A stretch of DNA of 64,000 bases from a virus, in the IMG/VR virus record IMGVR_UViG_3300002835_000013; one strand, 5' to 3'. Shown piece after piece: positions 1,984-52,338 of this stretch. Under the pieces are notes generated by a model. That model had not been told where the DNA came from, ran no database searches, and worked only from the letters and a program-made list of their open reading frames with translations. The translations under genes were made by a program, and so were the position numbers. Every line of letters begins with the position of its first letter. Within the stretch, counting starts at the first letter, position 1.

Positions 1984-4900
1984 ATGGCAAAGAAATCAAA
2001 CTACTCAAAACTCGCCGAATTTAGATCCGAAGAAAGGGATAGACTAGTTAGGTCTAATCCTAATCTATTACAAGGTCTCACGCCTACACAGATAGCAGAA
2101 CTCTTTCCTGATTATTTTAGAAGAGGAACACCAGATGTTGGCGGATTTAGAGAGGCTATCTCTAAAGAGTCAGCTAGAAAACAAAGTCTATGGCAAGGTA
2201 GCGTTGATACTCGTTTAGATCGTCAAGGTGGTATGCTATCGAGAATGCGCCAAGAATATGGCGGCGGTTCTTTCACTGATAGTTCTGTAGGAACAGGTAG
2301 TAAGCAGTTTCAAGCCTTAGCTCCTAGAATTATGAAAGACTTGCAAAGAGATTTTCCAGGTTTAACAAAAGAAGACGCTGCTGCAATTGTTGGTAATCTT
2401 GGCGAAGAGTCTGGTGGATTCGGACAAATGTCAGAAGCAGGCGGTCGAGGACCTGGTCGTGGATGGGCTCAATGGACAAGTCCAGATAGAAAAGCCAAAT
2501 TCTTAGCAAACGTTCAGAAGTATGGCGGCGATTTAGCAAACTATCAAGCAAACTATGAAACACTAAGAGATGAGTTGAAAGGCGCATACGCTCCTGCACT
2601 TAGAGAGATGATGGCCGCACAAGGTTTGCAAAACAAAACTCATGTGTTTATGAGACGATTTGAAAATCCTGGTGTTGAAGCATTTGATGTTAGAATGCGT
2701 TATGCACAAAGAGCGGTAAATGTTTATGAAGCACCAGATACTACACCACAGCAAGGAAAAGGTGGAGCGACTACACCCCAACAGCAAGCAGGACAAGCAG
2801 GAACAGGAGCCACGACTCCTAGCGCACCTGCAGGTGATACGACAAAACAAGCAGGACAAAGAACAGAAGGTGCTAAGTTTAGTGTAGTATCTAACTACAT
2901 TGTACCTAACGATAAATCGCTATACGACACAAGAAACGCACAGCAATGTGCCACACTGTCAAAAGCGTTTAATCCTAATATTGGTAGATCGAACAGCTGG
3001 ACGGTTGTTGATGGTGATATTAAAGCGGGTCAGATTGTAGCAACAAAACAATATAACAATCCAGGCGCAGATAGAGTTCACTCTGGTTATCATACAGGTG
3101 TCGCACTAACAGCACCAAATGAAAAAGGTGACTTTCTATTACTAGAACAATTCAATGGTTCTGGCGGTGCTAGAACGAAGTGGGTTAACAAGAATAGTTA
3201 TCCAATCGGTAATACTGGTAAGACAACATCATTTGGTCTAATCTCTTCTGGTGGTAAAGTTCATGACGAAGTTTCACAAGAAGCACTAGCATATGGTCAA
3301 GGACTCGGATCACCTGCACAAAAATCTGCGGTTGGTACCAACTCTGGAACACCAGGCACTGGCGGTGAATCTGCTCCTGGCGTCGAAGGTAATGTAGATT
3401 ACGCTGGTGAACCTGGTAATATCGGCGGTGCATCTATGGGTGAGGCAGAACAACAATCCGCTTCACTAATGCAACCTGTAGCAATGATGCGAAATCTCAT
3501 GGGTATGATGGGAGGAATGATGGGTGGCGGAACAGCATCTCCACTCGGCCTCATTACAACAGCAATGGGATTTATCATGCCACTGATAGGTTCTATCGCC
3601 GGTGAAAGATTATCTGGTGAAGGTATGGGTGACGCTGGACCAAGAGCATTACCAAGAATAAACATAAATCGTACCTCAGGTGGTAGAGGTGGTCATCGAG
3701 CAGCGTCACACACTCATGGACATACACAGACAAGAGCAAGAAAAGCTGATACTTATTCTCCTAGTGTATCATCGTCAGGTCTAAATCAAAAAAGTAACTT
3801 GGCGAATTATACAAGTATTCATGCTGCTCCTGCTATTGGCGCATCTCAACAACAATATAATGCTTTTAGAGAAGCTGTAGCAAGTATTGAAAGTCGTGGT
3901 GGTAACTATAATCTTCGTGGTGGTTCAAGCAATCGTTTTGCTGGTGCATATCAAATGGGCGGCGGCGAGATTAAAGAGATTGCTAAGTTTCTAGGAGAGC
4001 AAGCACCAGTCGCAAGAATGAAAGGATCAAGAAAGATTGCGGCGTCTGACGAGTTTTTGCAAAATCCACAAATGCAAGAAAAGTATTTTGATGCATACGT
4101 GTTACAACATCATAATCACTTAATGAAGAATAATAAAAAGTATGCTGCCATGTCTCCAGAAGACAGACTTAAAGTCCTTGGTTATGCTCACAATCAAGGA
4201 GCAGGTGGCGCTAATAAGTGGTTAAGAACAGGTGCATCAAAAGCAGATGCATTTGGAACAGATGCAACGAAATACTCTTACAGAATCGGCAAGCAGTTTG
4301 AAGGATTACAAGTAGCACAAGCTGCCGAGAAGCAAGGAACACAATTAGCATCGACAACGCCTGCATCCTCAACAGGTCAAGTAGGACCAACACCTGCAAC
4401 TCCGTCATCAACTATTGGTCCAACTACACAGATGGCTCAAGCGCCAAAAACATTTATGGAAAGAATGTTTCCTTCTACGGGGGCTGCTGAAATCAATGCG
4501 ACAACACCAAAATCAGAAGTTAGAACATCACCAGCTTTTGCTGCACCCACTGTTCCTGTTTCTAGAGAAGCCAGAACTCCTCTTGGCATATATTCTAATC
4601 CTTCAAGATATGATGTTATGTCACAGTTTGGATATAGAAAACAACTAGACACAGCTTCGGTTATATCGCAATCTTCGTCTCCTGCGGTACCTGCTGCATC
4701 GACACCACAACAGACTACTGTGACAGCGATGCCTCATGTTCATAATACACCAGGACCTGCTCCTGATATGACCAGTATGCAAATGAACCAGATTAGAAAT
4801 CAAATGCAAATGATGACGCCTCAGGCGCCGCCACAAAATGTTATGCCAACAATACAAAATCCATCACCAGTGACACAGGTTCTAAATCACGATCATACAA

Positions 4901-5055: not shown

Positions 5056-6024
5056 TTAGTCGTTTAGTAGATCACGAAATTCCTTTAGATCAGGATCATC
5101 GTCATCTTCGTCCTCAATCACAGGTGCCGCTGCCTTGCGAGCAACTGGCTTAGGATCATGGAAGGGAATATCCTCATCCTCATCAACAACCTTTGCTGCC
5201 TTGACCTTAGCGAGATTTCTCTCAAGGACTTCATCGGTATATGTTGACTTGCCAGGTGTCAGACCTAGAACATCATTTAGACGAGCCTTTAGCTGGTCAT
5301 ATGTCTTGAAGTTCTTTGGATCGATAATCTCCTTGAGGGAGTATTCTGTCTTCCAAATCTGTTCAAGTTCACCATCATCCTCGGATAGAGGACCTGGAGT
5401 TAGGAACACCGATTCGTCATAGTTAGGAAAACCAGACTGACGGACCATCTTCAACTTGAAGTTAGCACCTTCCCAAAGATCGAATGGATTGATCTTCTTT
5501 TCTGAATCAAGGTCTGGATTCATCATCTTTGTAATCTTATCAAAGATTTTCTTACCATACTTGAATAGAAAGACCTTGCCTTCATTCTGAGGATTCTTAG
5601 GATCACTCACCACATAGATGTTAGAAACATAGTGGAGGCGACGCTTCTGCTCACGGGCCTGCTTACGCTCTGGTGAGTTATCATCGGTCGAAGCATTCCA
5701 TAGAGTAGAATTGTATTCAGAAACAGGATCCTTGACGCCCTGACCAAGAGTGGTCAGTGACTTCTCAATATACCACTTACCGGTGAACTTGTTTTGAAAA
5801 CCGTGATCCCAATACTGAACCCATGGAAGAGCATCATCGCCATCCGCTGCAGGACCAGGAAGAAAACGAATAACCGCAAGAGCATTGCCAGCCTTATCTT
5901 GTGTAGGCTTCCAATAGTTGTCTGTGGAATCGTCTTTATCGTAGGTGGGCTTATTCATCTCGTCAACCTTCTTGAGAAGGCTGGAGAAGTCTTTGGATTG
6001 TTTCTTAAGGTTTGAAAAGTTCAT
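5056..6024 (-). CDS. gp32: Single-stranded DNA-binding protein gp32
   Basis: AVIRFLP, HGF...WYIE.SLTT, KYGKKIFDKI, GANFKLK, acidic C-terminal tail. Confidence 0.97.
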   Translation of the reverse strand: MNFSNLKKQSKDFSSLLKKVDEMNKPTYDKDDSTDNYWKPTQDKAGNALAVIRFLPGPAADGDDALPWVQYWDHGFQNKFTGKWYIEKSLTTLGQGVKDPVSEYNSTLWNASTDDNSPERKQAREQKRRLHYVSNIYVVSDPKNPQNEGKVFLFKYGKKIFDKITKMMNPDLDSEKKINPFDLWEGANFKLKMVRQSGFPNYDESVFLTPGPLSEDDGELEQIWKTEYSLKEIIDPKNFKTYDQLKARLNDVLGLTPGKSTYTDEVLERNLAKVKAAKVVDEDEDIPFHDPKPVARKAAAPVIEDEDDDDPDLKEFRDLLND

Positions 6025-6084
6025 TGTATTTTCCTTGTATTTGCGTTGTATGTTTTCTTATCCACATCATCATAATAAAAATAG

Positions 6085-6113
6085 ATAATAACACAAGAAT
6101 CTCCTTGTGTCAA
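6085..6113 (-). promoter_or_regulatory. Sigma70-type promoter for gp32
   Basis: TTGACA-17 nt-TATTAT on the minus strand. Confidence 0.75.
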
Positions 6114-6124
6114 ATGTTATTTAG

Positions 6125-6436
6125 TCACCAATCAATGGCAGGATCATGTAGATCCTCCCATTCCCATTTACCAATGAAGTCTCGTTTTGTCTGCTCAACT
6201 GCGGAGCATTCAAAGCGAATCTCTTGCCACGTCTTATCTCCCCATACACGACGAGGATTACCACACCAAATGCAACCAGATACACCACAGTCCATTGCAT
6301 CCATTTTATGAAAGCGATGTGGCTGAATAGTATCTCCATACTTATTGAACCAGTATGATGACTTTTTCACCTTGACTTGTCTATCGATGTGTCGCTTCTT
6401 TTGTTGGAATCTTCTCTGTCTTCTTTCTTTATTCAA
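6125..6436 (-). CDS. Hypothetical basic protein with CxxxxCxxCGNPR motif
   Basis: ORF; probable TTG start after a GGAG RBS rather than the track start at 6565. Confidence 0.6.
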   Translation of the reverse strand: MNKERRQRRFQQKKRHIDRQVKVKKSSYWFNKYGDTIQPHRFHKMDAMDCGVSGCIWCGNPRRVWGDKTWQEIRFECSAVEQTKRDFIGKWEWEDLHDPAIDW

Positions 6437-6611
6437 GAATAATCTCCAAATAGTGTTCCACTTCTTCATTTGGTAGATAACTAGTCTTTGTTTCCGTCTC
6501 ATAGATTTCAATCTGCGAGACATGAGAACCGTCATACTTATAGAACACTTCGTATCTTCCGTCAACCCACCCTTTCAATATGTCGGATGCGTTCCCTTCT
6601 AGTGTCTTCAT
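6429..6611 (-). CDS. Hypothetical protein
   Basis: ORF with GGAG RBS, packed in the operon. Confidence 0.55.
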   Translation of the reverse strand: MKTLEGNASDILKGWVDGRYEVFYKYDGSHVSQIEIYETETKTSYLPNEEVEHYLEIILE

Positions 6612-7200
6612 TGACCTTCTCCTTCAGTATGGCTTTGAACTTCTCGGCATCATACTTTATGAACGGTCTAAACTTGCGGAGTTTCAAAGCAACTCTTGAC
6701 CAGATGATATCATCATCGCCAAGGTATTTATCAAACTTTGAAGCGTAAGGAACAAAGTCGTTTAGAATTGCCGCAGACTCCAGAGCAATAGACTTCCGCA
6801 GAATAAGAGTAACAATGAAAGGATACTCACCATCGACAACATCAAAAGCATATTTACAACCATGCTCAAATACTTTGTCCACATCGTTTCTAAAAATGTA
6901 TGAGAGGGATTGTCTTCTCTTTTCTGCCTCCCAGAATGTTCCATGCGCTTCTTCTCCTATCATCTCGGTAATGTAATGACGGTCCTCTAGCAGATTAGCA
7001 ACGAAGAAGTTTTTGAGTTCCTCGGCATTGTATAGTTTCGCTACCTTCTCAAAGAAAGCCTTATCGTTGCGTTTTAGATATGACTCTTTCGTAGCACGGA
7101 GTTTACCGTTCATTAGAAAGAAGTCATACTTGACCTTGGTGAAATGAGTTCGCAAGGCCAAGAATAACAGATATGCTCCATAACCAGAGAAGTGTTTCAT
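6562..7200 (-). CDS. gp59: Helicase loader gp59
   Basis: Y..FLAL..HF...YDFF..NGK, KR.D..FFEK, F.ANL, K..PF; upstream of gp32. Confidence 0.9.
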   Translation of the reverse strand: MKHFSGYGAYLLFLALRTHFTKVKYDFFLMNGKLRATKESYLKRNDKAFFEKVAKLYNAEELKNFFVANLLEDRHYITEMIGEEAHGTFWEAEKRRQSLSYIFRNDVDKVFEHGCKYAFDVVDGEYPFIVTLILRKSIALESAAILNDFVPYASKFDKYLGDDDIIWSRVALKLRKFRPFIKYDAEKFKAILKEKVNEDTRRERIRHIERVG

Positions 7201-8237
7201 TTTGTTTGTTTTAGATAGTCCAATGTTATTTTAGTATCATTACGAAGTATATCATCCATTTCATTCATCGAATTAGGTCCGTATTTGCCTATAATGTCAT
7301 CAAGTTCAAATGGCTTTTCGGTATCGCCCATCGCATTTCTGGTGAGGTCATCAAGATAAGAATTGTTCCTATTAGCTATATTTTGTAGCGCCCGACTGAA
7401 CGGCGCAACCGGACGTGCAGGCATATTCGCTCCTTCCTGAAAGTCCTGGAAGTTCATATTCATCGCTTTGACCGCAGGATTCTGCAAGGTCGACGCCGGC
7501 CAGACCTTATTATTATCAAGTTTCGTCGGAGCATCACACTTCCTATCTGGGACACGGACCTTACGGAGCATTTCCTCTAGTGACTGTGACTTTGACTTTA
7601 GTGGCTCGTCAATCATGAGGTCTTCTTTTGTCTTCCAATCACGGTGTCTAAACTTATCAAGGCGCCACTTCTTTACTTTCTTATTACCATTGACAATAAG
7701 GTGCTTGTTCATAATAGCGTTATAAGTCTGATGGCTAATGTAAAGTCTGCCGACATGATAGGATGCCATACAGTGAATGAAGTCAAAATGATCAATCAGT
7801 GTCTTGCGATCCGTGAAGTCGGTCTTGATATACTGGACATTTGAATCCTGATTGAGTGCAGTAGCAAAGATATGTTCATTGCTATAATCATCATCCTCGT
7901 CCAGATGATACTTTACTATCCAAGTACCCGGTTTATGCCTAATCATATTCTCAAGCATGTTGTGTTGTGTGGGATTTTTAGGATGGAATGATTCATTCTT
8001 TAGAAGAAAGGTATCAATGTCGTTGATGAGTTCATCCCTTAGCAGAGAACTAATACAACCACCAGCAACGATTATAAATTCTCTATTATAACCATCATCA
8101 GTGGATACCCCCTCACTTTTATCCCAACTTGGATGTCTTCTTTCATAAAGGCCAACGTCTTTGATTAGTATTTCTAGTTTCCGTTTGACATCGGCAATGT
8201 GCCGAACTTCTTTGTCGGTAAAATCTTCACTAGACAT
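7197..8237 (-). CDS. Putative Pol-beta-superfamily nucleotidyltransferase (poly(A)/CCA head-like) with low-complexity C-terminus
   Basis: VAGGCISS...NDID motif and FDF.HC segment. Confidence 0.55.
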   Translation of the reverse strand: MSSEDFTDKEVRHIADVKRKLEILIKDVGLYERRHPSWDKSEGVSTDDGYNREFIIVAGGCISSLLRDELINDIDTFLLKNESFHPKNPTQHNMLENMIRHKPGTWIVKYHLDEDDDYSNEHIFATALNQDSNVQYIKTDFTDRKTLIDHFDFIHCMASYHVGRLYISHQTYNAIMNKHLIVNGNKKVKKWRLDKFRHRDWKTKEDLMIDEPLKSKSQSLEEMLRKVRVPDRKCDAPTKLDNNKVWPASTLQNPAVKAMNMNFQDFQEGANMPARPVAPFSRALQNIANRNNSYLDDLTRNAMGDTEKPFELDDIIGKYGPNSMNEMDDILRNDTKITLDYLKQTK

Positions 8238-8248
8238 GATGTAACCCT

Positions 8249-8473
8249 TTATAAAGGAAGTTGTGAGGTATTAGATTTCTTGAGAAAGTGGAGTTCTTCG
8301 GCTTCTAGTTTGATTTTGGATTTGAGAACACCCGAGACTAACTTTGCTGCGGTCTCTATCTCGAATCCTGTCTGTTCACAATACATAACGACGGCATCGA
8401 TATAAGGAATGTCTTTCATATAGACCAGTTCCTCAATCTCTAAACTAAACTTTTGTATGTCTTCGGGGGTCAT
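8249..8473 (-). CDS. gp33: Late transcription coactivator gp33
   Basis: FSLEIEELV...YIDAVV.YC...LKSKIKLEAEELHFL...LPL; gp33-gp59-gp32 synteny. Confidence 0.9.
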   Translation of the reverse strand: MTPEDIQKFSLEIEELVYMKDIPYIDAVVMYCEQTGFEIETAAKLVSGVLKSKIKLEAEELHFLKKSNTSQLPL

Positions 8474-8496
8474 TTGTTCCTCTGGTTCATAATATA

Positions 8497-8812
8497 AAAG
8501 GTGATTTTTCTGTTTCGAGGAAAACCACCAAACCCAATGAACTTACGCTGCTAGAGCGAAGTCAAATGGTACATTGTCGTTTGCTGCACCTGCAATTTGC
8601 CTTTGGTCTCCTTACGACCTTACTGTATCCCGTCGAACCTGTTCGCCCCCATCAAAGATACACTGTTGGACCCTCTGTCTTGTTCCAACTTTTCTCATAA
8701 AGAGTTGCGGGTTCCTATCTTTTCAGTCTAGGCAGTGTATCTATGATGGAGGCGGTGGGAATCGCACCCACGTCCAAGAAACCTATATTTCGTCTCTCAA
8801 CGACCTCGGCAA
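8497..8812 (-). ncRNA. ssrA: Circularly permuted (two-piece) tmRNA
   Basis: Acceptor piece ending GTGGG-TGCGATT-CCCAC-CGCCTCC-A (3' end at 8747) precedes the coding piece starting GGGGGCGAACAGGTTCGAC (8650); G3-U70 pair; tag ORF 8584-8543 ANDNVPFDFALAA*; terminator-like hairpin near 8500. Confidence 0.92.
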
Positions 8813-8820
8813 TTCTATTT

Positions 8821-8983
8821 ATCGTCTCCATCAAAGATACACTCTTAGCGTCAAAGTGATGGACTTGAACCATCATACCTTTCTTTGATATTCAGATATA
8901 CCGAACGTTACGATATACCCTTAGTCGGCCAACTCGCTATGTTAGATAATTAGTCTAACGAGTGTATCCATGATGAAGACGAT
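8821..8983 (-). ncRNA. Candidate structured ncRNA closed by a 24-nt inverted repeat and containing a T-loop hairpin
   Basis: Arms 8821-8844 and 8960-8983; TGATGG-TTCAAGT-CCATCA hairpin; own TATAAATA late promoter. Confidence 0.6.
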
Positions 8984-8991
8984 TCCAATTC

Positions 8992-8999
8992 TATTTATA
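8992..8999 (-). promoter_or_regulatory. T4-type late promoter
   Basis: TATAAATA; the 13-mer ATAAATAGAATTG recurs at 8810-8822 ahead of the tmRNA. Confidence 0.75.
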
Positions 9000-9279
9000 A
9001 TGGGGCGAAGGTTTTATTGTGACCGTCGATTGATAATGTGACTGCTCCAACGTAGCCACATTCTTTTGTTCCTGGAATGGAAAACTCACCGCTACCATGC
9101 CAGTGAAATGTAGGAGCGTTACACTCACCGCCGTTAATAGAAACCAACGAAACATCCATCACCTTCTTTGCTTTACAGTGGATGATATGGCTATCGCTAG
9201 CCTTCTTATCGCATGATATATCATCCGCTGCCATTGCTGTTCCACTCAATAATGATAATAATACTACAATCCGTTTCAT
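8995..9279 (-). CDS. Small secreted Cys-containing protein
   Basis: Signal peptide MKRIVVLLSLLSGTAMA; four Cys. Confidence 0.65.
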   Translation of the reverse strand: MKRIVVLLSLLSGTAMAADDISCDKKASDSHIIHCKAKKVMDVSLVSINGGECNAPTFHWHGSGEFSIPGTKECGYVGAVTLSIDGHNKTFAPL

Positions 9280-9282
9280 TTG

Positions 9283-10689
9283 TCAAGTCCTATTGTTGAT
9301 GTATTCTAAAAGTTTTCCATGATCGGGCTTGATACTGACGGACATATCTCCTAGATTTGGTATGTGGATGATATCTGCCAACTCAACTCTTTTCATGTAA
9401 AAGCTGCTAATGTCGTTCCCGATATCACAATCAGACAACATGGATTCATCTTCTGTTACAATATATAACAGATTACTAATCTCGTCAACCACTATCTCAA
9501 ATCGACTTCTGGAATACTTTCTTTCCAAAAGTTCTATCAAGTCAAAAGAGTTGATATCAATGTCATTGATGCGTGGCAGTTTGTTTTTTCGGACAAAGTA
9601 AAAATCCTCTGTGACATAATCTCCAGTCTCTATCACTCTACCATCTGGCATCTTTACCGTTAGCATATTGTCTGGAGTCGTTATCTTATAAAAATCATTA
9701 CACGGTTTACCTAACGATCTTGGATCAAACTTTTCTGTGTTCTTGTCAATGTATGGAAGAAACAGTGGACCGCCAGTTTCACTACAACCAAAAACACTAA
9801 CAATCTTTTTGATACTACCACTTTTGACAGCATTCAGCCATTTTGGATTTATGAATGATAGAATCATCATAGTGACAGCGGAAGCATCTATTTCACCAGA
9901 CTCTAATGTAGAAAGTAACGAGTCTGTTGCTAAACCGTTTGGTGATAGTATTTTAGTTATGCCTTTTCTCTCACAAAACTTCATAACATTGTAGTAATAG
10001 CCTTTGTCCGCATCGGTGACGACACTAGCAAACAAATAATGCTCTTTACAAACAAGCATTGAGGGTAAGAAGAATATACAGATAGAGGATCCATGATTGA
10101 AGGACTCTAGATGAATCGCCGAATCATCCTGATTGAATCCGAGTTGCTCCCAGTTCATAGAACATAGGTCATAAAGAAAAGAATGTGTTTGACTTATTAG
10201 TTTAGGTTTGCCCGTAGTGCCGCTACTGGTACACAAAAGCAAATCACTATCTGGTGTGGCATATACACCAACATCATTGTCAGAGAAAGCAACATAGTTA
10301 GGTTCTAGTCTAATACTCTTCCATGAATGACGAATGAAGAAATCGACCGCAAAGTTGTATTCGGGCGCATCTGGTAATCCGTATATGAACATATCCAAAG
10401 GCAAATGCGCCAGACATTTAGCACTGACGCAATCCTTTTCATTCATAGGTCTGGTTAGTATTACCATCTTTAGACCTAACTCAAATGCGGCAAATGTTAT
10501 AGCCAGATATGATAACTCATAAGATGGAATGGCTATCCCTATCTTTTGACCTGGTGTTATCCGTTCTTTGAGAAGTCTTTCTTTCCAGTGATTGATAGAT
10601 AAGGCAAGTTGTTCAAATGTGTATGTTTCATTTGCTGTATGAAATACACTATCTGGTCTAATCCATTTACGAGTAATAATCTTACTCAC
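9283..10689 (-). CDS. AMP-binding (ANL superfamily) adenylating enzyme
   Basis: TSSGTTGKPK P-loop, FGCSETGG, TGD motifs; GTG start with RBS. Confidence 0.8.
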   Translation of the reverse strand: MSKIITRKWIRPDSVFHTANETYTFEQLALSINHWKERLLKERITPGQKIGIAIPSYELSYLAITFAAFELGLKMVILTRPMNEKDCVSAKCLAHLPLDMFIYGLPDAPEYNFAVDFFIRHSWKSIRLEPNYVAFSDNDVGVYATPDSDLLLCTSSGTTGKPKLISQTHSFLYDLCSMNWEQLGFNQDDSAIHLESFNHGSSICIFFLPSMLVCKEHYLFASVVTDADKGYYYNVMKFCERKGITKILSPNGLATDSLLSTLESGEIDASAVTMMILSFINPKWLNAVKSGSIKKIVSVFGCSETGGPLFLPYIDKNTEKFDPRSLGKPCNDFYKITTPDNMLTVKMPDGRVIETGDYVTEDFYFVRKNKLPRINDIDINSFDLIELLERKYSRSRFEIVVDEISNLLYIVTEDESMLSDCDIGNDISSFYMKRVELADIIHIPNLGDMSVSIKPDHGKLLEYINNRT

Positions 10690-15147: not shown

Positions 15148-15313
15148 CCTCTACTTGTGCGTATTGTGATCGTTCATTCGTGCCAGAATAATACCATTCT
15201 TTCTGTTGAGAATACCAACGACCAAATCGTATCCATTTCTTTTCTTTATGACAGAGAAGATAATGATTGAACGGATGATCGTATGGATATGTTTCAATCG
15301 GTTGCCATGTCAT
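15086..15313 (-). CDS. DUF551-like small phage protein
   Basis: MTWQPIET...PTHWM.IPE.P. Confidence 0.7.
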   Translation of the reverse strand: MTWQPIETYPYDHPFNHYLLCHKEKKWIRFGRWYSQQKEWYYSGTNERSQYAQVEGDAPTHWMEIPELPNDNTKN

Positions 15314-16431
15314 AGATCACGCTTACCTTTCCAGAAAGCAACGATAACAGGAAAACGAAGTTTGCCGTCTTCCGTTTTGTTCTGATACCTCACGGTAACG
15401 TCCGTGCCGATATAATCATTAGCATTATACAGCAAGTCCTTGAGCATGTCAAATGAGCCACGCACTCCCGAAAACTGTGTCGTTCCATCTTTCAAACGGA
15501 TTTCCACACGCTTGGCAGCACCTGCCCAGTTACCTTTTCCTTCTTCGATAGAGACAATCTGGAACTCGTCGTCCTCAAACTCTTTATGCTTGATAAGGTT
15601 CTTAGAACGCTTGCCTTCATAAAGAGAGTCAGGAACACGGAGCATTTGGCCTTCGTAACCACTTTCGAGATAATGACCAAGCATTGTTTCAATTTCATTT
15701 TCGTTTTTAATCTCGAATGTCCTGACCAAATTTATACAACTCTGAAAATATATTTTAAGGTTCGGAAAGAGAAAGTCGTAACGTTCTTCGAATGTGCCAT
15801 CCATTATACAGTCATATACCCAATACTGTATCATCTGCTTAGACTCTTCCAAATCAGCAGCAGTTGGCTTTGTCTTACGAGCCAGTGAAATGATCTTTTC
15901 AAAATCATTCTTGAGGTCATGATTATACAACTCACCATCAAGAACCACATCAGGATATTTCTGAAAGAATGGTTCTAATGCCTCACGAATATGCGGAGCA
16001 GAGATGATAGACTTGCCATTGCGAGACTGCATACCATCTTTTGAAACGAGACAGCGAACACCATCAAGTTTCGGCTGTGAACAATACGGAAACTTGTTAT
16101 GCTTCTTGGCATCATACTTGTCGGCCAGCATACACTCATAGAACAAATCATCCTTCGACTTAGCAGCAGTAACGCTAGTATAATACTTGCCTTGAAACTG
16201 CTTCTTTACATAATGAGCATTTACTTCATTAGCAACCTGCATAGCAACGTCGGTCGCATTGGCACGACCAACATTCTTTTCAGTAGGATACTGCCAACCC
16301 GAAACTACAATCTTGCCACCATCGATACCAGAATGTGTCCGATACTTCTCGCTGTCATGTTCGATCCACCAAACACGGGTCTTACCTTTAGTGTCAATCT
16401 TGTATAGTTTCGGAAGGCTAATCATTACCAA
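15310..16431 (-). CDS. gp30: ATP-dependent DNA ligase
   Basis: KLDGVR, LDGELY, YD, EGQMLR, KRS..L.K.K, RFP motifs. Confidence 0.95.
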   Translation of the reverse strand: MVMISLPKLYKIDTKGKTRVWWIEHDSEKYRTHSGIDGGKIVVSGWQYPTEKNVGRANATDVAMQVANEVNAHYVKKQFQGKYYTSVTAAKSKDDLFYECMLADKYDAKKHNKFPYCSQPKLDGVRCLVSKDGMQSRNGKSIISAPHIREALEPFFQKYPDVVLDGELYNHDLKNDFEKIISLARKTKPTAADLEESKQMIQYWVYDCIMDGTFEERYDFLFPNLKIYFQSCINLVRTFEIKNENEIETMLGHYLESGYEGQMLRVPDSLYEGKRSKNLIKHKEFEDDEFQIVSIEEGKGNWAGAAKRVEIRLKDGTTQFSGVRGSFDMLKDLLYNANDYIGTDVTVRYQNKTEDGKLRFPVIVAFWKGKRDL

Positions 16432-17862: not shown

Positions 17863-19347
17863 TTAAGCAGCCTTAGGCTTATTATACCACATATCTTTGT
17901 AATCTTCAAGGTTCATTGTGCCCATTCGAGTGTTATGTTCCGCACGAACCATCCGAATGTTGCTACGATCATTGGAACCACCTTCATCAAGTGGAACAAT
18001 GTGTGCAGCATGAGCATCTTTGAACTTGAGCGGCTTACCATCAATATAGCATTTGTTATCCTGACTCTGTAGAATTTGCTCACGCAATTCCTTGGTAAGG
18101 GTTTTGCGTGATTGTTTCACAACAAGAATACCATCTTCAATAAGGGTATCACAGTCCATAAAGCGATTTTCGATCCACTTGATATTATCAAGCCAACGAT
18201 TTACGCTACCCTTACCGTGATTGTCTTTGAACATGGCAAAGCGATTGCGCTTTTCTTTGCTGTTATCATAACCATTGAGTAGCTGCAACGCATAGGCATC
18301 AAAAGTGTCTTTATGAAAGCGGATCCAGGCAAGACGGAACTGATCATAGTATCTATCCATGTCAGTAATCTTGAACGAGTCATAACGAGACTGATAAGTG
18401 AACCATAACCGAATAAGCATGATGCATTCATCTTCGGTCATTTTCGCCTTAATGTCTGCTAACTTGTTTTCTGCCATTGCAAAAAGAAAATCAAGAACCT
18501 CTGTGACTTTCTTTCGCATAATGTCAGCCTGAGCCTGTGTTATGTTAGTATCATAATACATCTTTTCAATGTCAGGATCATCCACATTGCATGGCTTGGA
18601 ACCATTATACACGATAGTAGCGATGCGAGCAACCAGACGATCATAAGTCAGACGATTAGGAGTGAACGTCAACCATTCACCAATCGTATCACCCTGGGTA
18701 CCTTGCTTAACATCGAAAAGATCGTGACAGAAAGTCTTGGTCTTACGATCGGTACGAGCCAACTGACGAATAAGATTGGCAACAGGAACATCGCCAACGC
18801 CATTTACCTGCTCTTGATGATTAAGAGCCGTAAAGTTATTCGAGGTAGCCCACAGCATCGCTTTCTGTGTCGGCGACAGATTACGATAGATCACGATACG
18901 AACCTTGAAATTAAGGAACATATCACGTTCTTGGTCGGTCAAATCCGAATATTGCTTGTAACCGATCATCTTAGTTTCATAAGGATTGGTACAAAACTCT
19001 CCACGAAAGAATGCTCGGATCGCACGTTTGCGATGACCACCATCGATGGACTCATACTTTTCACGATACTTTAAACGCTCTTCTGGAGTGCGCTCATTGA
19101 TCTTGATTTCACCAATGTCTGTGCCTTTAAAGATAGAAGACACGATACCCTGCCGTTTCGTGGCAGTCTTCTTCTTATCAGACTCAAACTTATCGTTGGT
19201 CGTATCAATTCGCTGATGGACAGGAAGGACATCAATGTCCGCCATTAGATCGATAAGTTCTCGAATGGTGATGATTTTCATCTCCCATTCCATAAGATTT
19301 CTATCATAAAGCGAACTCATGCGGGAGATTTGCGAAGACGTAGACAT
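17863..19347 (-). CDS. DUF262 (ParB/Srx-like) plus C-terminal HNH nuclease, GmrSD-like architecture
   Basis: P.HQR, IDGGHR, N.....N..E motifs; C-terminal CYIDG...AHIVP...GG.N...N...HN. Confidence 0.75.
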   Translation of the reverse strand: MSTSSQISRMSSLYDRNLMEWEMKIITIRELIDLMADIDVLPVHQRIDTTNDKFESDKKKTATKRQGIVSSIFKGTDIGEIKINERTPEERLKYREKYESIDGGHRKRAIRAFFRGEFCTNPYETKMIGYKQYSDLTDQERDMFLNFKVRIVIYRNLSPTQKAMLWATSNNFTALNHQEQVNGVGDVPVANLIRQLARTDRKTKTFCHDLFDVKQGTQGDTIGEWLTFTPNRLTYDRLVARIATIVYNGSKPCNVDDPDIEKMYYDTNITQAQADIMRKKVTEVLDFLFAMAENKLADIKAKMTEDECIMLIRLWFTYQSRYDSFKITDMDRYYDQFRLAWIRFHKDTFDAYALQLLNGYDNSKEKRNRFAMFKDNHGKGSVNRWLDNIKWIENRFMDCDTLIEDGILVVKQSRKTLTKELREQILQSQDNKCYIDGKPLKFKDAHAAHIVPLDEGGSNDRSNIRMVRAEHNTRMGTMNLEDYKDMWYNKPKAA

Positions 19348-21653: not shown

Positions 21654-22253
21654 ATGTTATTTATATCCAACAAGTATACCACTTGGTATTTCTCCCTTAT
21701 AGAGAATCGCAAATCAACTATTCCAGAAGGATATGTTGAGAAGCATCATATTATCCCCAAATCTATCGGAGGAACCGATGACTCCGATAATCTTGTCGCA
21801 TTGACCGCAAGAGAACATTTTTTAGCACATTGGTTACTAACCAAAATGACTAAAGATAATGAACAAGTAAAAATGAAACATGCTTTGGGTGGAATGACTG
21901 GTAATAATCACAATGGAAGGACTCTATCATCTTATCAATATGCGATTTGTAGGCAATCATTTAGTGAAGCACGAAAAGGCGTTATTTCACCCCATATGCT
22001 AAGATCGGGTGAAGATCATCATATGTTCGGAAAGAAAAGACCAAGACAATCACTCCTTATGAGCGGTGAAAATAATCCAAACTATGGCAAGTTTGGTGAA
22101 AATCACCACTGTTATGGTAAGAAACATAAAGACGATAGGACAGAGAGAATGACTAAAACTTTACAGTCATTAGGCAAACTACCCTGTCCTAACTGTGGCG
22201 AAATGATTTCACCGTTGAACAGTCAACACAAAAGACGTTGTATCAACCTTTGA
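21654..22253 (+). CDS. Free-standing HNH homing endonuclease with NUMOD3-like repeats
   Basis: EKHHIIPKSIGG...NLVALTAREHFLAH; GENNPNYGK; C-terminal CPNC. Confidence 0.88.
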   Translation: MLFISNKYTTWYFSLIENRKSTIPEGYVEKHHIIPKSIGGTDDSDNLVALTAREHFLAHWLLTKMTKDNEQVKMKHALGGMTGNNHNGRTLSSYQYAICRQSFSEARKGVISPHMLRSGEDHHMFGKKRPRQSLLMSGENNPNYGKFGENHHCYGKKHKDDRTERMTKTLQSLGKLPCPNCGEMISPLNSQHKRRCINL

Positions 22254-23469
22254 TGTTGACCACCTGACGGAGACGGTGGACAATCTCAACAAGGTCATCC
22301 TGGGCAGCCATGACCGCACCGATATCCTTGTAAGCAGCCGGCGACTCGTCGATAACATCGGCATCCTTACGGCACTCGATACCCTCGGTCGCCTTGATAT
22401 GATCCTCTAGCGTGATAGCCTTACGTGCCGCATTGCGAGACATACGACGACCAGCGCCGTGAGAACATGAACAAAACGACTCATGATTACCAAGACCACG
22501 AACGATAAACGAACCCGTTCCCATCGAACCCGGTATGATACCGAGGTCGTTCTTACGAGCCCGAACAGCACCCTTGCGGGTCACATACACATTTTCTCCA
22601 AAGTGGTTCTCCTTGGAGATATAGTTGTGATGGCAGTTCACAGCCTTTTCGTCAGATACAACGAATGCCGGCAAACGCCCACGAAGAACCTTTAGCACAG
22701 CGTCCATCATAACCTGACGGTTGAGGGCAGCAAACTCCTGTGCCCACGATACAGCCTCCACATAATCATCGAATAGCGTCGTGTTTTCTACCAGATAGGA
22801 CAAGTCCTGATCCGGCAGATACGGCAAGATATGATAGCGTTCCATCTCACGCTTTGCAGCTTCGATGAAATACTGACCTATCTTGTTACCAACACCACGA
22901 GAACCAGAGTGTAGCATTACCCACACATAGTCGGCCTCGTCCAGACACAATTCGATAAAGTGATTACCCGTGCCAAGCGTTCCCATAAACTCGAAGGTCT
23001 TATGAGAAGCAATCTTCGGATGCTTTGCTAAGATAGCGTCATAACGAGACTTCAACACCGCCCAAGCATCTATGGCAGAACGGGACGCAAAGTTCGAGTT
23101 CCACGTTCCTTCGTCGTTCTTACCACCGTTGTCCGTGCGACCATGCGGCACTGCGGCCTCGATAGCAGAACGAAGCGGAGCAAGATTATCCGGTAAATCG
23201 TTCGCCGTCAGTGACAAGCGAACAGCCATCATACCGCAACCGATATCAACACCAACCGCAGCCGGAACCACAGCACCCTTCGTTGCTATAACAGAACCAA
23301 CCGTAGCACCCTTGCCAAGATGAACGTCCGGCATAACCGCTACATGCTTATACACGAACGGCAAGGACGCTATATTTTCCAACTGCGTGCGAGCGTCGGC
23401 TTCGACCTCAACACCTTCGCACCACATCTTGAGCGGCGCACCACGACCTTGGACGAACTGATAAGCCAT
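22243..23469 (-). CDS. rtcB: RNA-splicing/repair ligase RtcB
   Basis: MPDVH.G.G, VGVDIGCG, GTLG.GNHF, HSGSRG, HHN, SCSHGAGR, DE.P.AYK. Confidence 0.97.
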   Translation of the reverse strand: MAYQFVQGRGAPLKMWCEGVEVEADARTQLENIASLPFVYKHVAVMPDVHLGKGATVGSVIATKGAVVPAAVGVDIGCGMMAVRLSLTANDLPDNLAPLRSAIEAAVPHGRTDNGGKNDEGTWNSNFASRSAIDAWAVLKSRYDAILAKHPKIASHKTFEFMGTLGTGNHFIELCLDEADYVWVMLHSGSRGVGNKIGQYFIEAAKREMERYHILPYLPDQDLSYLVENTTLFDDYVEAVSWAQEFAALNRQVMMDAVLKVLRGRLPAFVVSDEKAVNCHHNYISKENHFGENVYVTRKGAVRARKNDLGIIPGSMGTGSFIVRGLGNHESFCSCSHGAGRRMSRNAARKAITLEDHIKATEGIECRKDADVIDESPAAYKDIGAVMAAQDDLVEIVHRLRQVVNIKG

Positions 23470-26668: not shown

Positions 26669-26735
26669 ATATTAGCACATCGGAACGGAAGGGTCAACCA
26701 AAATCGTTTGTCAACGACTGCGACAGGTTGTCGCA
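26669..26735 (-). promoter_or_regulatory. Early promoter cassette 4
   Basis: TTGACC-17-TAATAT; palindrome 26719-26735. Confidence 0.85.
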
Positions 26736-26764
26736 CATTGATCGCAGTCGTTGACATTCTTCTA

Positions 26765-27007: not shown

Positions 27008-27074
27008 ATAATACCACGGTAAAAGGAAGGAGTCAATAGAAATCTAATTGTAAACAGTGCGACAGGATGTCGCA
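27008..27074 (-). promoter_or_regulatory. Early promoter cassette 5
   Basis: TTGACT-17-TATTAT; palindrome 27058-27074. Confidence 0.85.
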
Positions 27075-27076
27075 CC

Positions 27077-27645: not shown

Positions 27646-27711
27646 ATTATAGCACAATGGAACCGAGATGCAAGCGAAATCGTTTGTAAACGAGTGCGAC
27701 AGGTTGTCGCA
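27646..27711 (-). promoter_or_regulatory. Early promoter cassette 6
   Basis: CTTGCA...TGCTATAAT; palindrome 27695-27711. Confidence 0.85.
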
Positions 27712-27776
27712 CCTCTAAGTGACTGATTTCATTAATGATTTTATAAGTGATTGATTATAAAGCGATTTTATCTTAG

Positions 27777-50334: not shown

Positions 50335-52338
50335 TTATTTAGTCTTTTTGTATTTTCTTTTTCCAAACAATGCTGTTTTTTCAAACTCTGCGTTCACATC
50401 AGGTTTTACTTCATCTTGACTCATTGTGTTTGGAGTCATGCCCATTGATCCCATATAAGGGTCAATCAGGCTTTCTTTTCTCACTTTTTCAGCCGTTTCT
50501 TTCATCTTTTCTTCGGCTAGTTTGCCATACTTTGCTTTGAATCTTCTACGAGTTTCTTCTTTCATCATCCAACGGTCAATAGGAGACCATAGCTGATTTG
50601 GTTCACCAGTAATGAAAGGATTATCATCGCTTGTTATATCACCGACAAATGAAGGATTCTTGGCAGAGGTAAATGTCTGACCAAGGCGATCCGCTTTGAT
50701 GGGTAGATTGCCAAAGACTTTAGTTTCATAATAACCCATATCTCTTGTCTTACCTGGCTCCTGACCTGGCGTATCTTTCTTATAACGATCTGTTAGCTTA
50801 GGTGTGCCCCAGTTTCCTGCGCCACCTACTGGATTGCTCTTTGCCTTTGGTGAGAAGTCCGAATACTGTTCTAGCATATTCTCAAAGCGGCGGTCCATAT
50901 CACTGGATAGAAACTCTTCCACTTCTTTGGAAATGGAGTCAACGAACTTATTGTATGTCTCAACAATAGTATTGGCGTCAAGGTCATTCTTTACCTCAAT
51001 AACCTTCTCAAATAGCTGGTCATAACGATTTAGATTGAACTGTGCCTTGCTCCACTTTTCATAACGCTTTTCTTCGGCAATGACACGACCACCAGTGGTT
51101 GACCTTGCTTCGTTACGCTGTCTGGATACATCATTGCTGGTATTCACAAATAGCATAATCGTCTTGTAACCGGCACTCTCAAGGATATTCTTGATTTGTC
51201 TTGTTGCTTCATAGTCTGCCATGGTGCCATTGACTACAAGATTATCACCATTACACTCTTTGATGGAAAACTTGTTATCTGATACTTCTCTAAAGCCATG
51301 TGGTAGAATAGCTTCTTTTAGTATCTTGTCTTTGCCTGAACCAGGAACACCACCAAGAACGATTGCCTTATGTTCTATAACATATGACTTACCAAACATA
51401 TCTGGATTAGCCTTGCCGAACCAACGCATTACTTTACCTGCTTCCGAGTTTGCTTCGTTTTCAATATCTGAACCAGTTGAGCCTTCTTGCTTGATATCTT
51501 TACCGAGTCTACCATCTTCGTTTTGTTTGTGATGGACCAGTTCATGTGCGACAGTTCTAAAGATGTCCATTGGATGACGATTCTTTGTCATAACGATTAG
51601 CTTCTTCTCACCTGGTGAATAACCACCAAATGATGGCTGGTCGCCGTGATCGTCAGCTTCTTTGTATTCTATTTCAGGAGGTTCTACAATGCCAAGTTTG
51701 CCGACAGTAAAGTCAATAAAACTTTTCAGCATACCATCAAACTCTTTGCGAGATAGATCCTCGGTTAGAGTATCTTCTTTGAGATATGATTTGGCTGCGG
51801 TGAAAATCTTCTTGGCTAATGCTCTATCGGCGGTAGGTGCGGTCTTCATAAACTCGCCAAACTTGCCACCACGGATATATTCACGCATCTGTGTTCCAGA
51901 TACGCCTGCCTTACGACCGCCAGAGTTGATTACATCAAAGCGTCTAAAGGCATAGTTTTTGTTCTTATCAAACTTTGGATTGTCTCTAGGCAGAACATAT
52001 TTGCCAATGCTATTCTTGAACTCTGCTACACGGTCACCACCTGTAATCATTGTCACATCTTCGACGCCTTCATCGGAGAGTTTTTTACAAATAGCAAATG
52101 CGGTTGTAGCATTTGGATCGTCAACGATATTGATGCCAGGGAATAGCTGGCGAAGAAACATTACTTTTTGCTGATATGGAAGAGGATTCTTTTTAGGATC
52201 CCAGGACTTGGAGGTATAAACTCTAAACTCGGCGCCAATCTTTCTAGCATAGTTAGCACCGAAGTGGATCATTTCAGCATGGCCTTTTGTAGGTACCTGG
52301 AAACGTCCGAAAATGAATACAACTTTTTTATTGAACAT
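50335..52338 (-). CDS. Multidomain protein: cytidylyltransferase-like NTase, zincin peptidase, P-loop kinase
   Basis: FGRFQ.PTKGH...SGT.MR; AHELVH; GGVPGSGKD. Confidence 0.8.
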   Translation of the reverse strand: MFNKKVVFIFGRFQVPTKGHAEMIHFGANYARKIGAEFRVYTSKSWDPKKNPLPYQQKVMFLRQLFPGINIVDDPNATTAFAICKKLSDEGVEDVTMITGGDRVAEFKNSIGKYVLPRDNPKFDKNKNYAFRRFDVINSGGRKAGVSGTQMREYIRGGKFGEFMKTAPTADRALAKKIFTAAKSYLKEDTLTEDLSRKEFDGMLKSFIDFTVGKLGIVEPPEIEYKEADDHGDQPSFGGYSPGEKKLIVMTKNRHPMDIFRTVAHELVHHKQNEDGRLGKDIKQEGSTGSDIENEANSEAGKVMRWFGKANPDMFGKSYVIEHKAIVLGGVPGSGKDKILKEAILPHGFREVSDNKFSIKECNGDNLVVNGTMADYEATRQIKNILESAGYKTIMLFVNTSNDVSRQRNEARSTTGGRVIAEEKRYEKWSKAQFNLNRYDQLFEKVIEVKNDLDANTIVETYNKFVDSISKEVEEFLSSDMDRRFENMLEQYSDFSPKAKSNPVGGAGNWGTPKLTDRYKKDTPGQEPGKTRDMGYYETKVFGNLPIKADRLGQTFTSAKNPSFVGDITSDDNPFITGEPNQLWSPIDRWMMKEETRRRFKAKYGKLAEEKMKETAEKVRKESLIDPYMGSMGMTPNTMSQDEVKPDVNAEFEKTALFGKRKYKKTK

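Follow-up and report, generated by a model that had tools for sequence, protein, structure and literature searches.

Why should a phage carry two RNA hairpins side by side, one within a transfer-messenger RNA (tmRNA) gene and one standing free next to it, that are closed by the same stem and contain unrelated interiors? This question is raised by a locus in IMG/VR virus record IMGVR_UViG_3300002835_000013, of which a stretch of 64,000 nucleotides (the window) was analysed. The locus encodes a circularly permuted, two-piece tmRNA directly upstream of the late-transcription coactivator gene gp33. The intervening segment (IVS), or spacer, of this tmRNA is here called unit 1, and the neighboring free-standing hairpin is called unit 2. 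A sequence-only reading of the window had offered two explanations for the shared stem, namely that the units form a small family of functional RNAs, or that the stem is a reusable module holding different cargoes. As a description, the latter has proved apt, in that one closing helix bounds at least 68 unrelated RNA interiors as well as small open reading frames (ORFs), both in tmRNA genes and in free-standing slots. Unit 2 is probably a free-standing copy of a stem-closed tmRNA spacer cassette, whose arms would serve as portable homology and whose helix would act as an RNA clamp. The parts of the locus on which this view depends are as follows.

8543-8650, minus strand: tmRNA coding piece, running from GGGGGCG (8644-8650) to the stop codon of the tag AANDNVPFDFALAA.
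8651-8743, minus strand: unit 1, the 93-nt intervening segment of the tmRNA, closed by UAGAUACACUG / CAGUGUAUCUUUGAU.
8744-8747, minus strand: AUCA in place of the expected CCA, after the acceptor 3' strand.
8749-8805, minus strand: tmRNA acceptor piece (P2 strand, T arm, acceptor 3' strand CGCCUCC at 8748-8754), from RF04321 and ARAGORN.
8810-8822, minus strand: downstream copy of a 13-mer (GATAAATA...), directly before the tmRNA 5' end.
8821-8983, minus strand: unit 2, a hairpin cassette that stands free of the gene, 163 nt in all; its closing helix (13 bp, a U-U mismatch and 10 bp) surrounds a 115-nt interior.
8821-8833, minus strand: leader mimic UGAU and pseudo-acceptor 5' strand GGAGACGAU, in which the 3:70 pair is A-U rather than G-U.
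8857-8875, minus strand: T-arm-like hairpin UGAUGG-UUCAAGU-CCAUCA inside unit 2.
8971-8983, minus strand: pseudo-acceptor 3' strand AUCGUCUUC followed by AUCA, a CCA mimic in which C74 is replaced by U.
8986-8998, minus strand: upstream copy of the 13-mer, ATAAATAGAATTG, which together with T8999 forms TATAAATA, a T4-type late-promoter motif, and overlaps the stop codon of a 94-codon ORF.
8823-8998, minus strand: 176-nt insertion comprising unit 2 and one promoter copy, which is a gap in the sister-phage alignment.

ARAGORN calls the permuted tmRNA and a tag frame ending in ...ALAA, and the gene scores 90.9 bits with Rfam model RF04321 (cut-off 47) and 60.8 bits with RF01849 (cut-off 50). The pairing of GGGGGCG with CGCCUCC creates the G3-U70 alanine identity pair, and the acceptor stem and spacer fold as one continuous helix of 11 + 9 bp (-46.4 kcal/mol and z = -5.8 for the spacer region). 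Unit 2 folds into a single hairpin (-64.4 kcal/mol, z = -7.4). These two hairpins, each with a closing helix of 22-24 bp, are the strongest well-paired inverted repeats in the window, and both survive folding of the 397-nt precursor. Common to them is the 16-mer AGTGTATCTTTGATGG, which has three matches with two or fewer mismatches in the window compared to 0.09 expected, and the 3' arm of unit 2 is, over 21 nt, 90% complementary to the 5' arm of the tmRNA itself. The arms described in the sequence-only reading (8733-8748 with 8650-8665, and 8960-8983 with 8821-8844, minus strand) are present in the sequence, as are the U-U mismatch in both units, the switch of the inner pair between CACTG/CAGTG and CACTC/GAGTG, the T-loop hairpin of the second unit at 8857-8875, and the difference between the two interiors, which are unrelated to one another. 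Both units likewise include a UAGACU-containing hairpin and an AA ahead of the 3' arm, but these traits do not generalise, with AGAC not being enriched among the 68 interior families.

By every test of membership applied, unit 2 is neither a tRNA nor a tmRNA. ARAGORN at its default settings and Rfam make no tRNA or tmRNA call, no T arm precedes the 5' arm, the end reads AUCA rather than NCCA, and the pairing of GGAGACG with CGUCUUC yields A3-U70 instead of a G3-U70 pair. A weak cloverleaf in unit 2 is reported by ARAGORN at a relaxed threshold of 80% only, and the T-arm-like hairpin may be part of a decayed tRNA-like cloverleaf (8850-8923). When all Rfam families were searched over 8780-9020 with E-values up to 10, only chance-level matches to small nucleolar and long noncoding RNAs were returned for unit 2, and Rfam E-value scans of unit 2 and eight related loci gave matches limited to tmRNA, tRNA and Mu-gpT-DE. 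The earlier concern that the motif might prove to be a known Rfam family is thus answered for unit 2, since no Y RNA, YrlA or other Rfam match was obtained. Unit 2 does fit the definition of the cassette family given below, being recovered by a structure scan on the tmRNA strand with 9/9 helix and 7/7 stem pairs.

How widespread is the closing helix? Patterns made of the arm cores alone, separated by gaps of 40-70, 71-100 or 101-130 nt, matched 76, 76 and 7 loci in IMG/VR, respectively, with about three chance matches estimated for the first scan, and the first arm pattern gave zero matches in 185,579 bacterial and archaeal genomes. Nearly all matches are spacers of permuted tmRNA genes with the order GGAC, T arm, acceptor 3' strand, ACCA, U and helix, and the spacer is followed by helix, U, UGAU, GGGG and the coding piece. 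Among the phage contigs of IMG/VR, about 230 permuted tmRNA genes have their spacer closed by this helix, most commonly with the arms GAUACAC/GUGUAUC, and the cultured phage Melnitz carries the variant CCAUAAACACUU / AAGUGUUUAUGAUGG. As the sequence-only reading anticipated, arm-pattern and structure scans located further copies near tRNA and tmRNA genes in phage contigs.

A sample of genes chosen independently of the helix was assembled from 65 loci collected via the gp33 protein, in which the tmRNA was located by its T arm and acceptor pairing only, yielding 26 distinct tmRNA genes. Positions 78-86 are paired in at least 24 of these genes and position 87 in 20, with two to six pair types each. 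The arm types include GAUACAC, GAUACAU, GUAACAC, GUAACAU, GACACUU, AGCACAC and AUAUACG, together with arms that contain a Shine-Dalgarno sequence in genes with a spacer ORF. The helix has a paired fraction of 0.81, compared to 0.25-0.56 in shifted registers. Also conserved are a C74-A(-2) mismatch (23/26), a U77-U mismatch (14/26) and the UGAU leader. The helix pairs include 18 G-U but just one A-C, and because G-U pairs so far outnumber A-C, we conclude that the helix is under selection at the RNA level, on the tmRNA sense strand.

The family was defined as A(C/U)CA, one nucleotide and a helix of at least 9 bp, closing through the second helix strand, one nucleotide and UGAU, the whole being stacked on an adjoining helix of 6 bp or longer. 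Scanning for this structure (A[CT]CA, 9/9 helix pairs, TGAT, at least 6/7 flanking pairs) identified 238 T-arm-linked cassettes and 49 cassettes scored as lacking a T arm, and returned none from shuffled DNA. Opposite-strand detections of perfectly paired hairpins were removed, and the T-arm classifier is a simple one with a few false negatives. Approximately six of the 49 are such false negatives and six are inner units located in a tmRNA spacer behind an ORF, so that roughly 37 are truly free-standing, representing about 16 distinct arm/stem types in roughly 20 distinct contigs, a count that was reduced since some contigs were fetched twice, and many contigs are short and redundant. T-arm-linked cassettes carry ACCA in 237 of 238 cases and G3-U70 in 226 of 238, whereas those scored without a T arm carry ATCA in 27 of 49 and a Watson-Crick 3:70 pair in 30 of 49. 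In a free-standing helix, ATCA converts the C-A mismatch to a U-A pair, and the stems covary (GGAGACG/CGUCUUC, GAAGGCG/CGCCUUC, GGUGGCG/CGCCACC). Free-standing cassettes therefore keep the helix through compensatory changes while shedding the T arm, G3-U70 and, usually, CCA.

The sole exception to an encoded CCA among the 238 T-arm-linked cassettes is the tmRNA of the window, which reads AUCA. It has been noted that CCA is 'not always' encoded in permuted tmRNA genes (PMC11915505). This AUCA may have arisen by conversion from the neighboring free-standing unit, which itself carries AUCA, and the tmRNA would then need trimming and CCA addition to function. In L205, a contig 98% identical to the window, ACCA is found at the same place.

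Is unit 2 a fixed part of this locus? Alignment with the related contigs L291, L294 and L296 reveals a clean 176-nt gap over window positions 8823-8998, and in L291, L292, L294 and L296, which are metagenome contigs selected by the promoter and tmRNA 5' end they have in common with the window, the empty site reads CCATTA|TAAATAGAATTG|CCGAGG, that is, the end of the small ORF, a single TAAATAGAATTG and then the tmRNA. Unit 2 is a dispensable insertion. The 13-mer had been described as an identical late promoter from which each unit starts. Exact copies of ATAAATAGAATTG do exist at both sites, 8986-8998 and 8810-8822, and nowhere else in the window, but the full TATAAATA motif is present upstream only, the downstream copy reading GATAAATA. 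Moreover, because the empty-site relatives hold one copy, the pair is a direct repeat flanking the insertion. It is plausible that TATAAATA is a late promoter, since three other copies in the window lie 26-30 nt upstream of ORF starts. The empty-site relatives also bear on annotation. ARAGORN places the tmRNA 5' end at 8836 and RF01849 places it at 8839, both inside the 3' arm of unit 2, and because these relatives lack the overrun bases, the real end is near 8805-8809; the tmRNA models overrun into unit 2.

Sister phages that lack or replace unit 2 are 91-98% identical to the window in aligned sequence. What free-standing cassettes keep is the helix. At the cassette site, L071 has one unit with an unrelated interior; L205 has unit 2 of the window plus an extra 196-nt small-ORF cassette; L107, L212 and L217 have two units; and L197 and L293 have up to six cassettes, consisting of five hairpin units and one bounded ORF cassette, with one unbounded small ORF also lying between cassettes. 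Junctions take the form GGAGACG|CCTTCACCA or GGAGACG-ATAAATAGAATTG-GAATCGTCTTC, and either the 13-mer or pseudo-acceptor repeats mark the limits of the cassette replacements and of the 176-nt and 196-nt indels. Insertions at this position are also present in a sister lineage (L242-L255), where the stems are different ones and the promoter is not duplicated.

Several observations indicate that cassettes also travel. First, units within one of the 68 families obtained by clustering interiors are 92-100% identical, while the mature tmRNA around them (70 nt upstream, 120 nt downstream) is 65-82% identical, and acceptor stems vary by compensatory substitutions around an invariant insert. Because nearly identical units lie in tmRNA genes this diverged, we conclude that cassettes move between phages. 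Second, the near-identical tmRNA genes of the window, L071, L107, L197 and L296 contain unrelated spacers. Third, interiors pass between the gene and the free-standing slots: the interior of unit 1 recurs in the tmRNA genes of L110 and L205 and occupies free-standing slots of L107, L212 and L217, the interior in slot 1 of L197 is the tmRNA spacer interior of L295, and the spacer ORF of L107 recurs as a free-standing cassette in L197 and L293. Fourth, L169:3750-3852 (minus strand) holds a family-2 unit, its interior identical to interiors of T4-like tmRNA genes, in an unrelated phage of Mu-gpT type, between the major head gene and a Mu-gpT-DE motif (RF03012, 73 bits). That unit is flanked by a duplicated GGGGGCUAC...GUGGCCCCC hairpin resembling an acceptor micro-helix, the left copy of which ends in ACCA, and it is the single context without a tRNA-like gene nearby. 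We conclude that cassettes are exchanged between phages and multiplied.

Other arrangements of the same elements were encountered. L110 (minus strand; reverse-complement positions 3400-3900) has a mosaic tmRNA in which the acceptor piece and spacer are nearly identical to those of the window, and the promoter (sigma-70-like plus TATAAATA), coding piece, tag and neighboring genes differ. L046 (minus strand, locus 1-490) and L143 carry a scrambled tmRNA duplicate. Nearest the promoter is a cassette lacking a T arm; behind it come an acceptor/T-arm minihelix in one piece (45 nt, including G3-U70 and ACCA), another cassette and a truncated coding piece that has a terminator, and L143 continues with a complete tmRNA. 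A tag-less permuted tRNA-like gene at L041:2935-3130 (plus strand), and also in L015, L073, L142, L144, L148, L162 and L168, is composed of a T arm plus ACUCCCC-ACCA, a cassette, and GGGGAGU plus two small hairpins. Its 5' and 3' ends are paired, there is no G3-U70, it lies just after tRNA genes, and Rfam tmRNA models are silent at E-values up to 1; in the L015/L041 group the arms of the family close its spacer. The Shine-Dalgarno sequence of small ORFs in the spacer forms part of the closing helix in L107 (minus strand, reverse-complement 5960-6200), L261-L264 and L287. In the spacers of L094, L048, L300 and L121, a T-arm-like hairpin abuts the 3' strand of the 9-bp closing helix, and the excised hairpin would resemble an acceptor/T minihelix.

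How might such cassettes arise, spread and be tolerated? In these aquatic T4-like phages the tmRNA acceptor stem runs on into a long helix, where the UGAU leader is paired with the encoded ACCA and about 10 bp more of helix close whatever the spacer contains. Under the view that we favor, the arms, about 20 nt long and nearly identical in many different phages, would provide portable homology for the phage recombination system: phages would exchange interiors by recombining there, and unequal exchange would seed extra copies outside the tmRNA gene. At the present locus, one copy together with the late-promoter 13-mer would have been inserted between the small upstream ORF and the tmRNA. Each cassette would fold on itself in the transcript, insulating the tmRNA from mispairing with the insert, while the clamp would bring the two acceptor strands together, and with ORF cargo (L205, L261) the helix may sequester the ribosome-binding site. 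The helix could also be a platform for double-strand-specific or RNase P-type cleavage through which host RNases excise the cassette. RNase P might cut at UGAU|G, with RNase E or RNase III acting near CCA|U; alternatively, RNase III might cut within the helix, whose length of 22-24 bp suits this enzyme. RNase E is known to cut Escherichia coli tmRNA just 3' of CCA (PMC5291269), and PeSL motifs in T4-type phages serve recombination and also form mini-circles (PMC2839356, PMC4122927). The mover (recombination), the clamp role and the RNases responsible are what we infer from the sequence comparisons. The 115 nt of RNA that unit 2 carries as cargo, part of it a decayed tRNA-like element, are probably incidental.

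Several considerations weigh against this view. A fully paired leader and trailer are generally expected to make a poor RNase P substrate, and no RNase III gene was found among 28 window ORFs scanned. The arm-pattern scans select the GATACAC type by construction, and thus the apparent invariance of the arms is partly circular. Very high conservation of interiors could reflect function instead of recent transfer. Finally, because junctions vary by lineage (the window has a 13-nt duplication of the promoter, the L242 lineage has no such duplication, and L205 and L107 have pseudo-acceptor repeats), they do not define a single insertion mechanism.

A more ambitious version, which we regard as possible but hold tentatively, is that aquatic T4-like phages run a cassette system built on a mimic of the tmRNA acceptor. 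A portable helix copying the acceptor/CCA/leader junction would insulate each cassette and release it, so that one late transcript could deliver an exchangeable set of small structured RNAs and micro-proteins. The cargo would then be under selection, for instance for host takeover or anti-defence, with the helix being a dedicated processing signal and the tmRNA gene the original dock.

It is unlikely that the cargo is the whole point of the arrangement, with spacer interiors and unit 2 being functional small RNAs that are made late and freed from a tRNA-like processing stem to act, for example, as decoys, as regulators or as mimics of tRNAs. Such roles would fit the far better conservation of interiors than of the surrounding tmRNA, the few compensatory changes found within interiors, the one variant in the unit 2 T stem, which preserves pairing (A-U to G-U), the much better folding of unit 2 than of shuffled sequence, and the conserved small ORFs that the slot also carries. 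T-arm-like hairpins are likewise enriched, occurring in six of the 68 interior families compared to 0.06 expected. With its default thresholds ARAGORN detects no tRNA in any of the 68 interiors, and at 80% it detects tRNAs in 2/68 compared to 2/680 shuffles, a weak signal; the enrichment of hairpins suggests captured fragments of tRNAs or tmRNAs and not a common functional core. Recent transfer explains the high identity equally well, there is no Rfam match, and the 68 or more families have no common motif. The interior of unit 2 was seen in one other contig alone (L205) and in none of the metagenome contigs scanned, and unit 2 is missing or replaced in sister phages that are 91-98% identical. 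The proposal of one small family of functional RNAs is not supported, given unrelated interiors, a unit 2 interior confined to one other contig and the dispensability of unit 2.

Quite unlikely is a miniature mobile element, resembling a miniature inverted-repeat transposable element (MITE) or driven by a nuclease, that targets acceptor-stem-like junctions and for which the tmRNA spacer is a preferred safe harbor. The arms do look like terminal inverted repeats, a 12-13-nt direct repeat flanks unit 2, near-identical copies occupy diverged tmRNA genes, the L169 copy resides in an unrelated phage at a duplicated acceptor-stem-like hairpin, and an HNH-domain protein is encoded in the window (17863-19347). 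Yet all contexts but one are tmRNA or tRNA-like junctions or the array immediately upstream, flanking repeats vary in length and identity between events, and the short contigs examined contain no transposase or nuclease alongside the cassettes. The asymmetry of G-U over A-C implies selection on RNA pairing and not on DNA repeats alone, and T4-type phages need no such enzyme for efficient recombination at short repeats (PeSL, PMC2839356).

Highly improbable is the idea that unit 2 is an unselected, decaying by-product of a partial tmRNA duplication. It lacks a T arm, CCA, G3-U70 and a coding piece, it is dispensable, and scrambled tmRNA duplicates exist (L046/L143 and L156/L166), but compensatory substitutions maintain the helix in at least three independent pseudo-acceptor types, ATCA restores a pair, and cassettes build ordered arrays with conserved junctions rather than eroding. 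Remnants of a temperate-phage attP site were rejected given a complete gene, a phage that is T4-like and lytic in type, and cassettes without the tmRNA 3' half, and an integron-like system was rejected with no integrase or attC seen.

With a spacer cassette copied out of the tmRNA gene as the favored reading, what is already known of its parts? Unit 1 corresponds exactly to the IVS of permuted two-piece tmRNAs (Keiler, Shapiro and Williams 2000; PMC11915505; PMC9004378), being located between the acceptor 3' strand and the 5' end of the coding piece, whereas unit 2 differs in lying outside the gene and in having no T arm, CCA or G3-U70. In the published accounts of the tmRNA IVS that we examined (including PMC11915505 and PMC9004378), the spacer is treated as excised, and a conserved helix, cassette exchange and free-standing copies are not described; as contents of spacers, the tmRNA database paper names one tRNA gene and one repetitive element (PMC11915505). 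The sequence-only reading knew of no description of this arrangement, and we found no published account.

The PeSL elements (Arbiol et al. 2010, PMC2839356; Comeau et al. 2014, PMC4122927) are similar in being short repeated promoter plus stem-loop motifs in hyperplastic regions of T4-like genomes, where recombination between repeats inserts, deletes and replaces small genes. The stem-loop followed by ATAAATAGAATTG at the present locus is a comparable composite, and, as with PeSLs, indels and replacements between close relatives start and end at the repeated motif. However, the promoter here is of late type (TATAAATA) whereas that of PeSLs is a sigma-70 early promoter; the stem-loop here is not a terminator, having no U tract, and the minus strand gave no terminator call; the stem comes from the tmRNA acceptor and spacer helix, with RNA-level selection on pairing; and it encloses its cargo, while PeSLs flank theirs.

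Bacterial 23S rRNA intervening sequences are removed by RNase III with no religation. They resemble the cassettes in being helix-closed, variable and laterally exchanged inserts in a stable-RNA gene, sometimes with an ORF, whose excision leaves a fragmented functional RNA, but the host RNA and position differ, and RNase III cleavage, established for rRNA, is inferred here; moreover, we know of no free-standing arrays of such sequences. The YrlA Y RNA has a tRNA-like module and a long stem, and is often encoded near rsr and rtcB. Unit 2 is similar in its long terminal stem and T-arm-like hairpin, and an RtcB gene is present in the genome of the window, but the unit 2 stem is tmRNA spacer sequence, its interior is not conserved and has no Rfam match, and no Ro/TROVE domain was found in the subset of 28 window ORFs scanned. 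Arrays such as that of L197 recall integron cassettes in their order of unrelated small cassettes, conserved, folded and recombination-prone ends and fixed anchor, but no integrase, attC or attI was seen, the boundaries are tmRNA-acceptor mimics, noncoding hairpins are included, and the mover is likely general homologous recombination. Compared to MITEs and other transposons, the 12-13-nt repeat is found in the window and other junction types are found elsewhere, and L169 alone has no nearby tRNA-like gene. Thus, the known kinds of system involved are the tmRNA IVS and PeSL-type shuffling, and what is new is the helix consensus with its covariation, the free-standing pseudo-acceptor cassettes and arrays, the empty site and the loss of tRNA marks.

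The wider surroundings of the locus include the following genes.

5056-6024, minus strand: gp32, T4-like replication and late-transcription block.
6562-7200, minus strand: gp59, same block.
8249-8473, minus strand: gp33 late-transcription coactivator gene (Pfam PF16805, 4e-21), directly downstream of the tmRNA.
8995-9279, minus strand: small ORF upstream of the cassette site, 94 codons as listed; its true start may be later.
17863-19347: HNH-domain protein.
22243-23469: RtcB RNA ligase (430 bits).

The order of tmRNA and then gp33 matches the synteny of phage Melnitz and pelagimyophages, in which a tmRNA adjoins gp33 (PMC9004378). A blastn search of window positions 8400-9100 against INPHARED phages gave no match, and the matches of a 41-nt probe, to Melnitz among others, were confined to the tmRNA 5' core. 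The 94-codon ORF ends in a stop codon that abuts the cassette site, and a strong sigma-70-like promoter predicted ahead of this ORF (9258-9286) could read through toward the cassette and tmRNA. An AMP-binding enzyme (9283-10689) neighbors the same ORF, and a possible nucleotidyltransferase (PHROG; 7197-8237) lies just downstream of gp33. Elsewhere in the window are genes for an ATP-dependent DNA ligase (15310-16431) and a Zeta-toxin-like kinase domain protein (50335-52338), as well as three copies within 1 kb of a near-palindromic 18-19-mer, GTGCGACAGGWTGTCGCAC (26719-26736, 27057-27075 and 27694-27712), which may be a regulatory or terminator repeat.

The spacer of two-piece tmRNAs has been treated as disposable, but here it is better conserved than its host tmRNA, exchanged, and copied outside the gene. 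These findings provide a testable model for the shuffling of very small genes and RNAs by T4-like phages, a counterpart of PeSLs that uses a late promoter, and for how a processing signal of a stable RNA may be re-used as a general release-and-insulation module. Because the cultured phage Melnitz carries a variant of the helix, experiments are possible.

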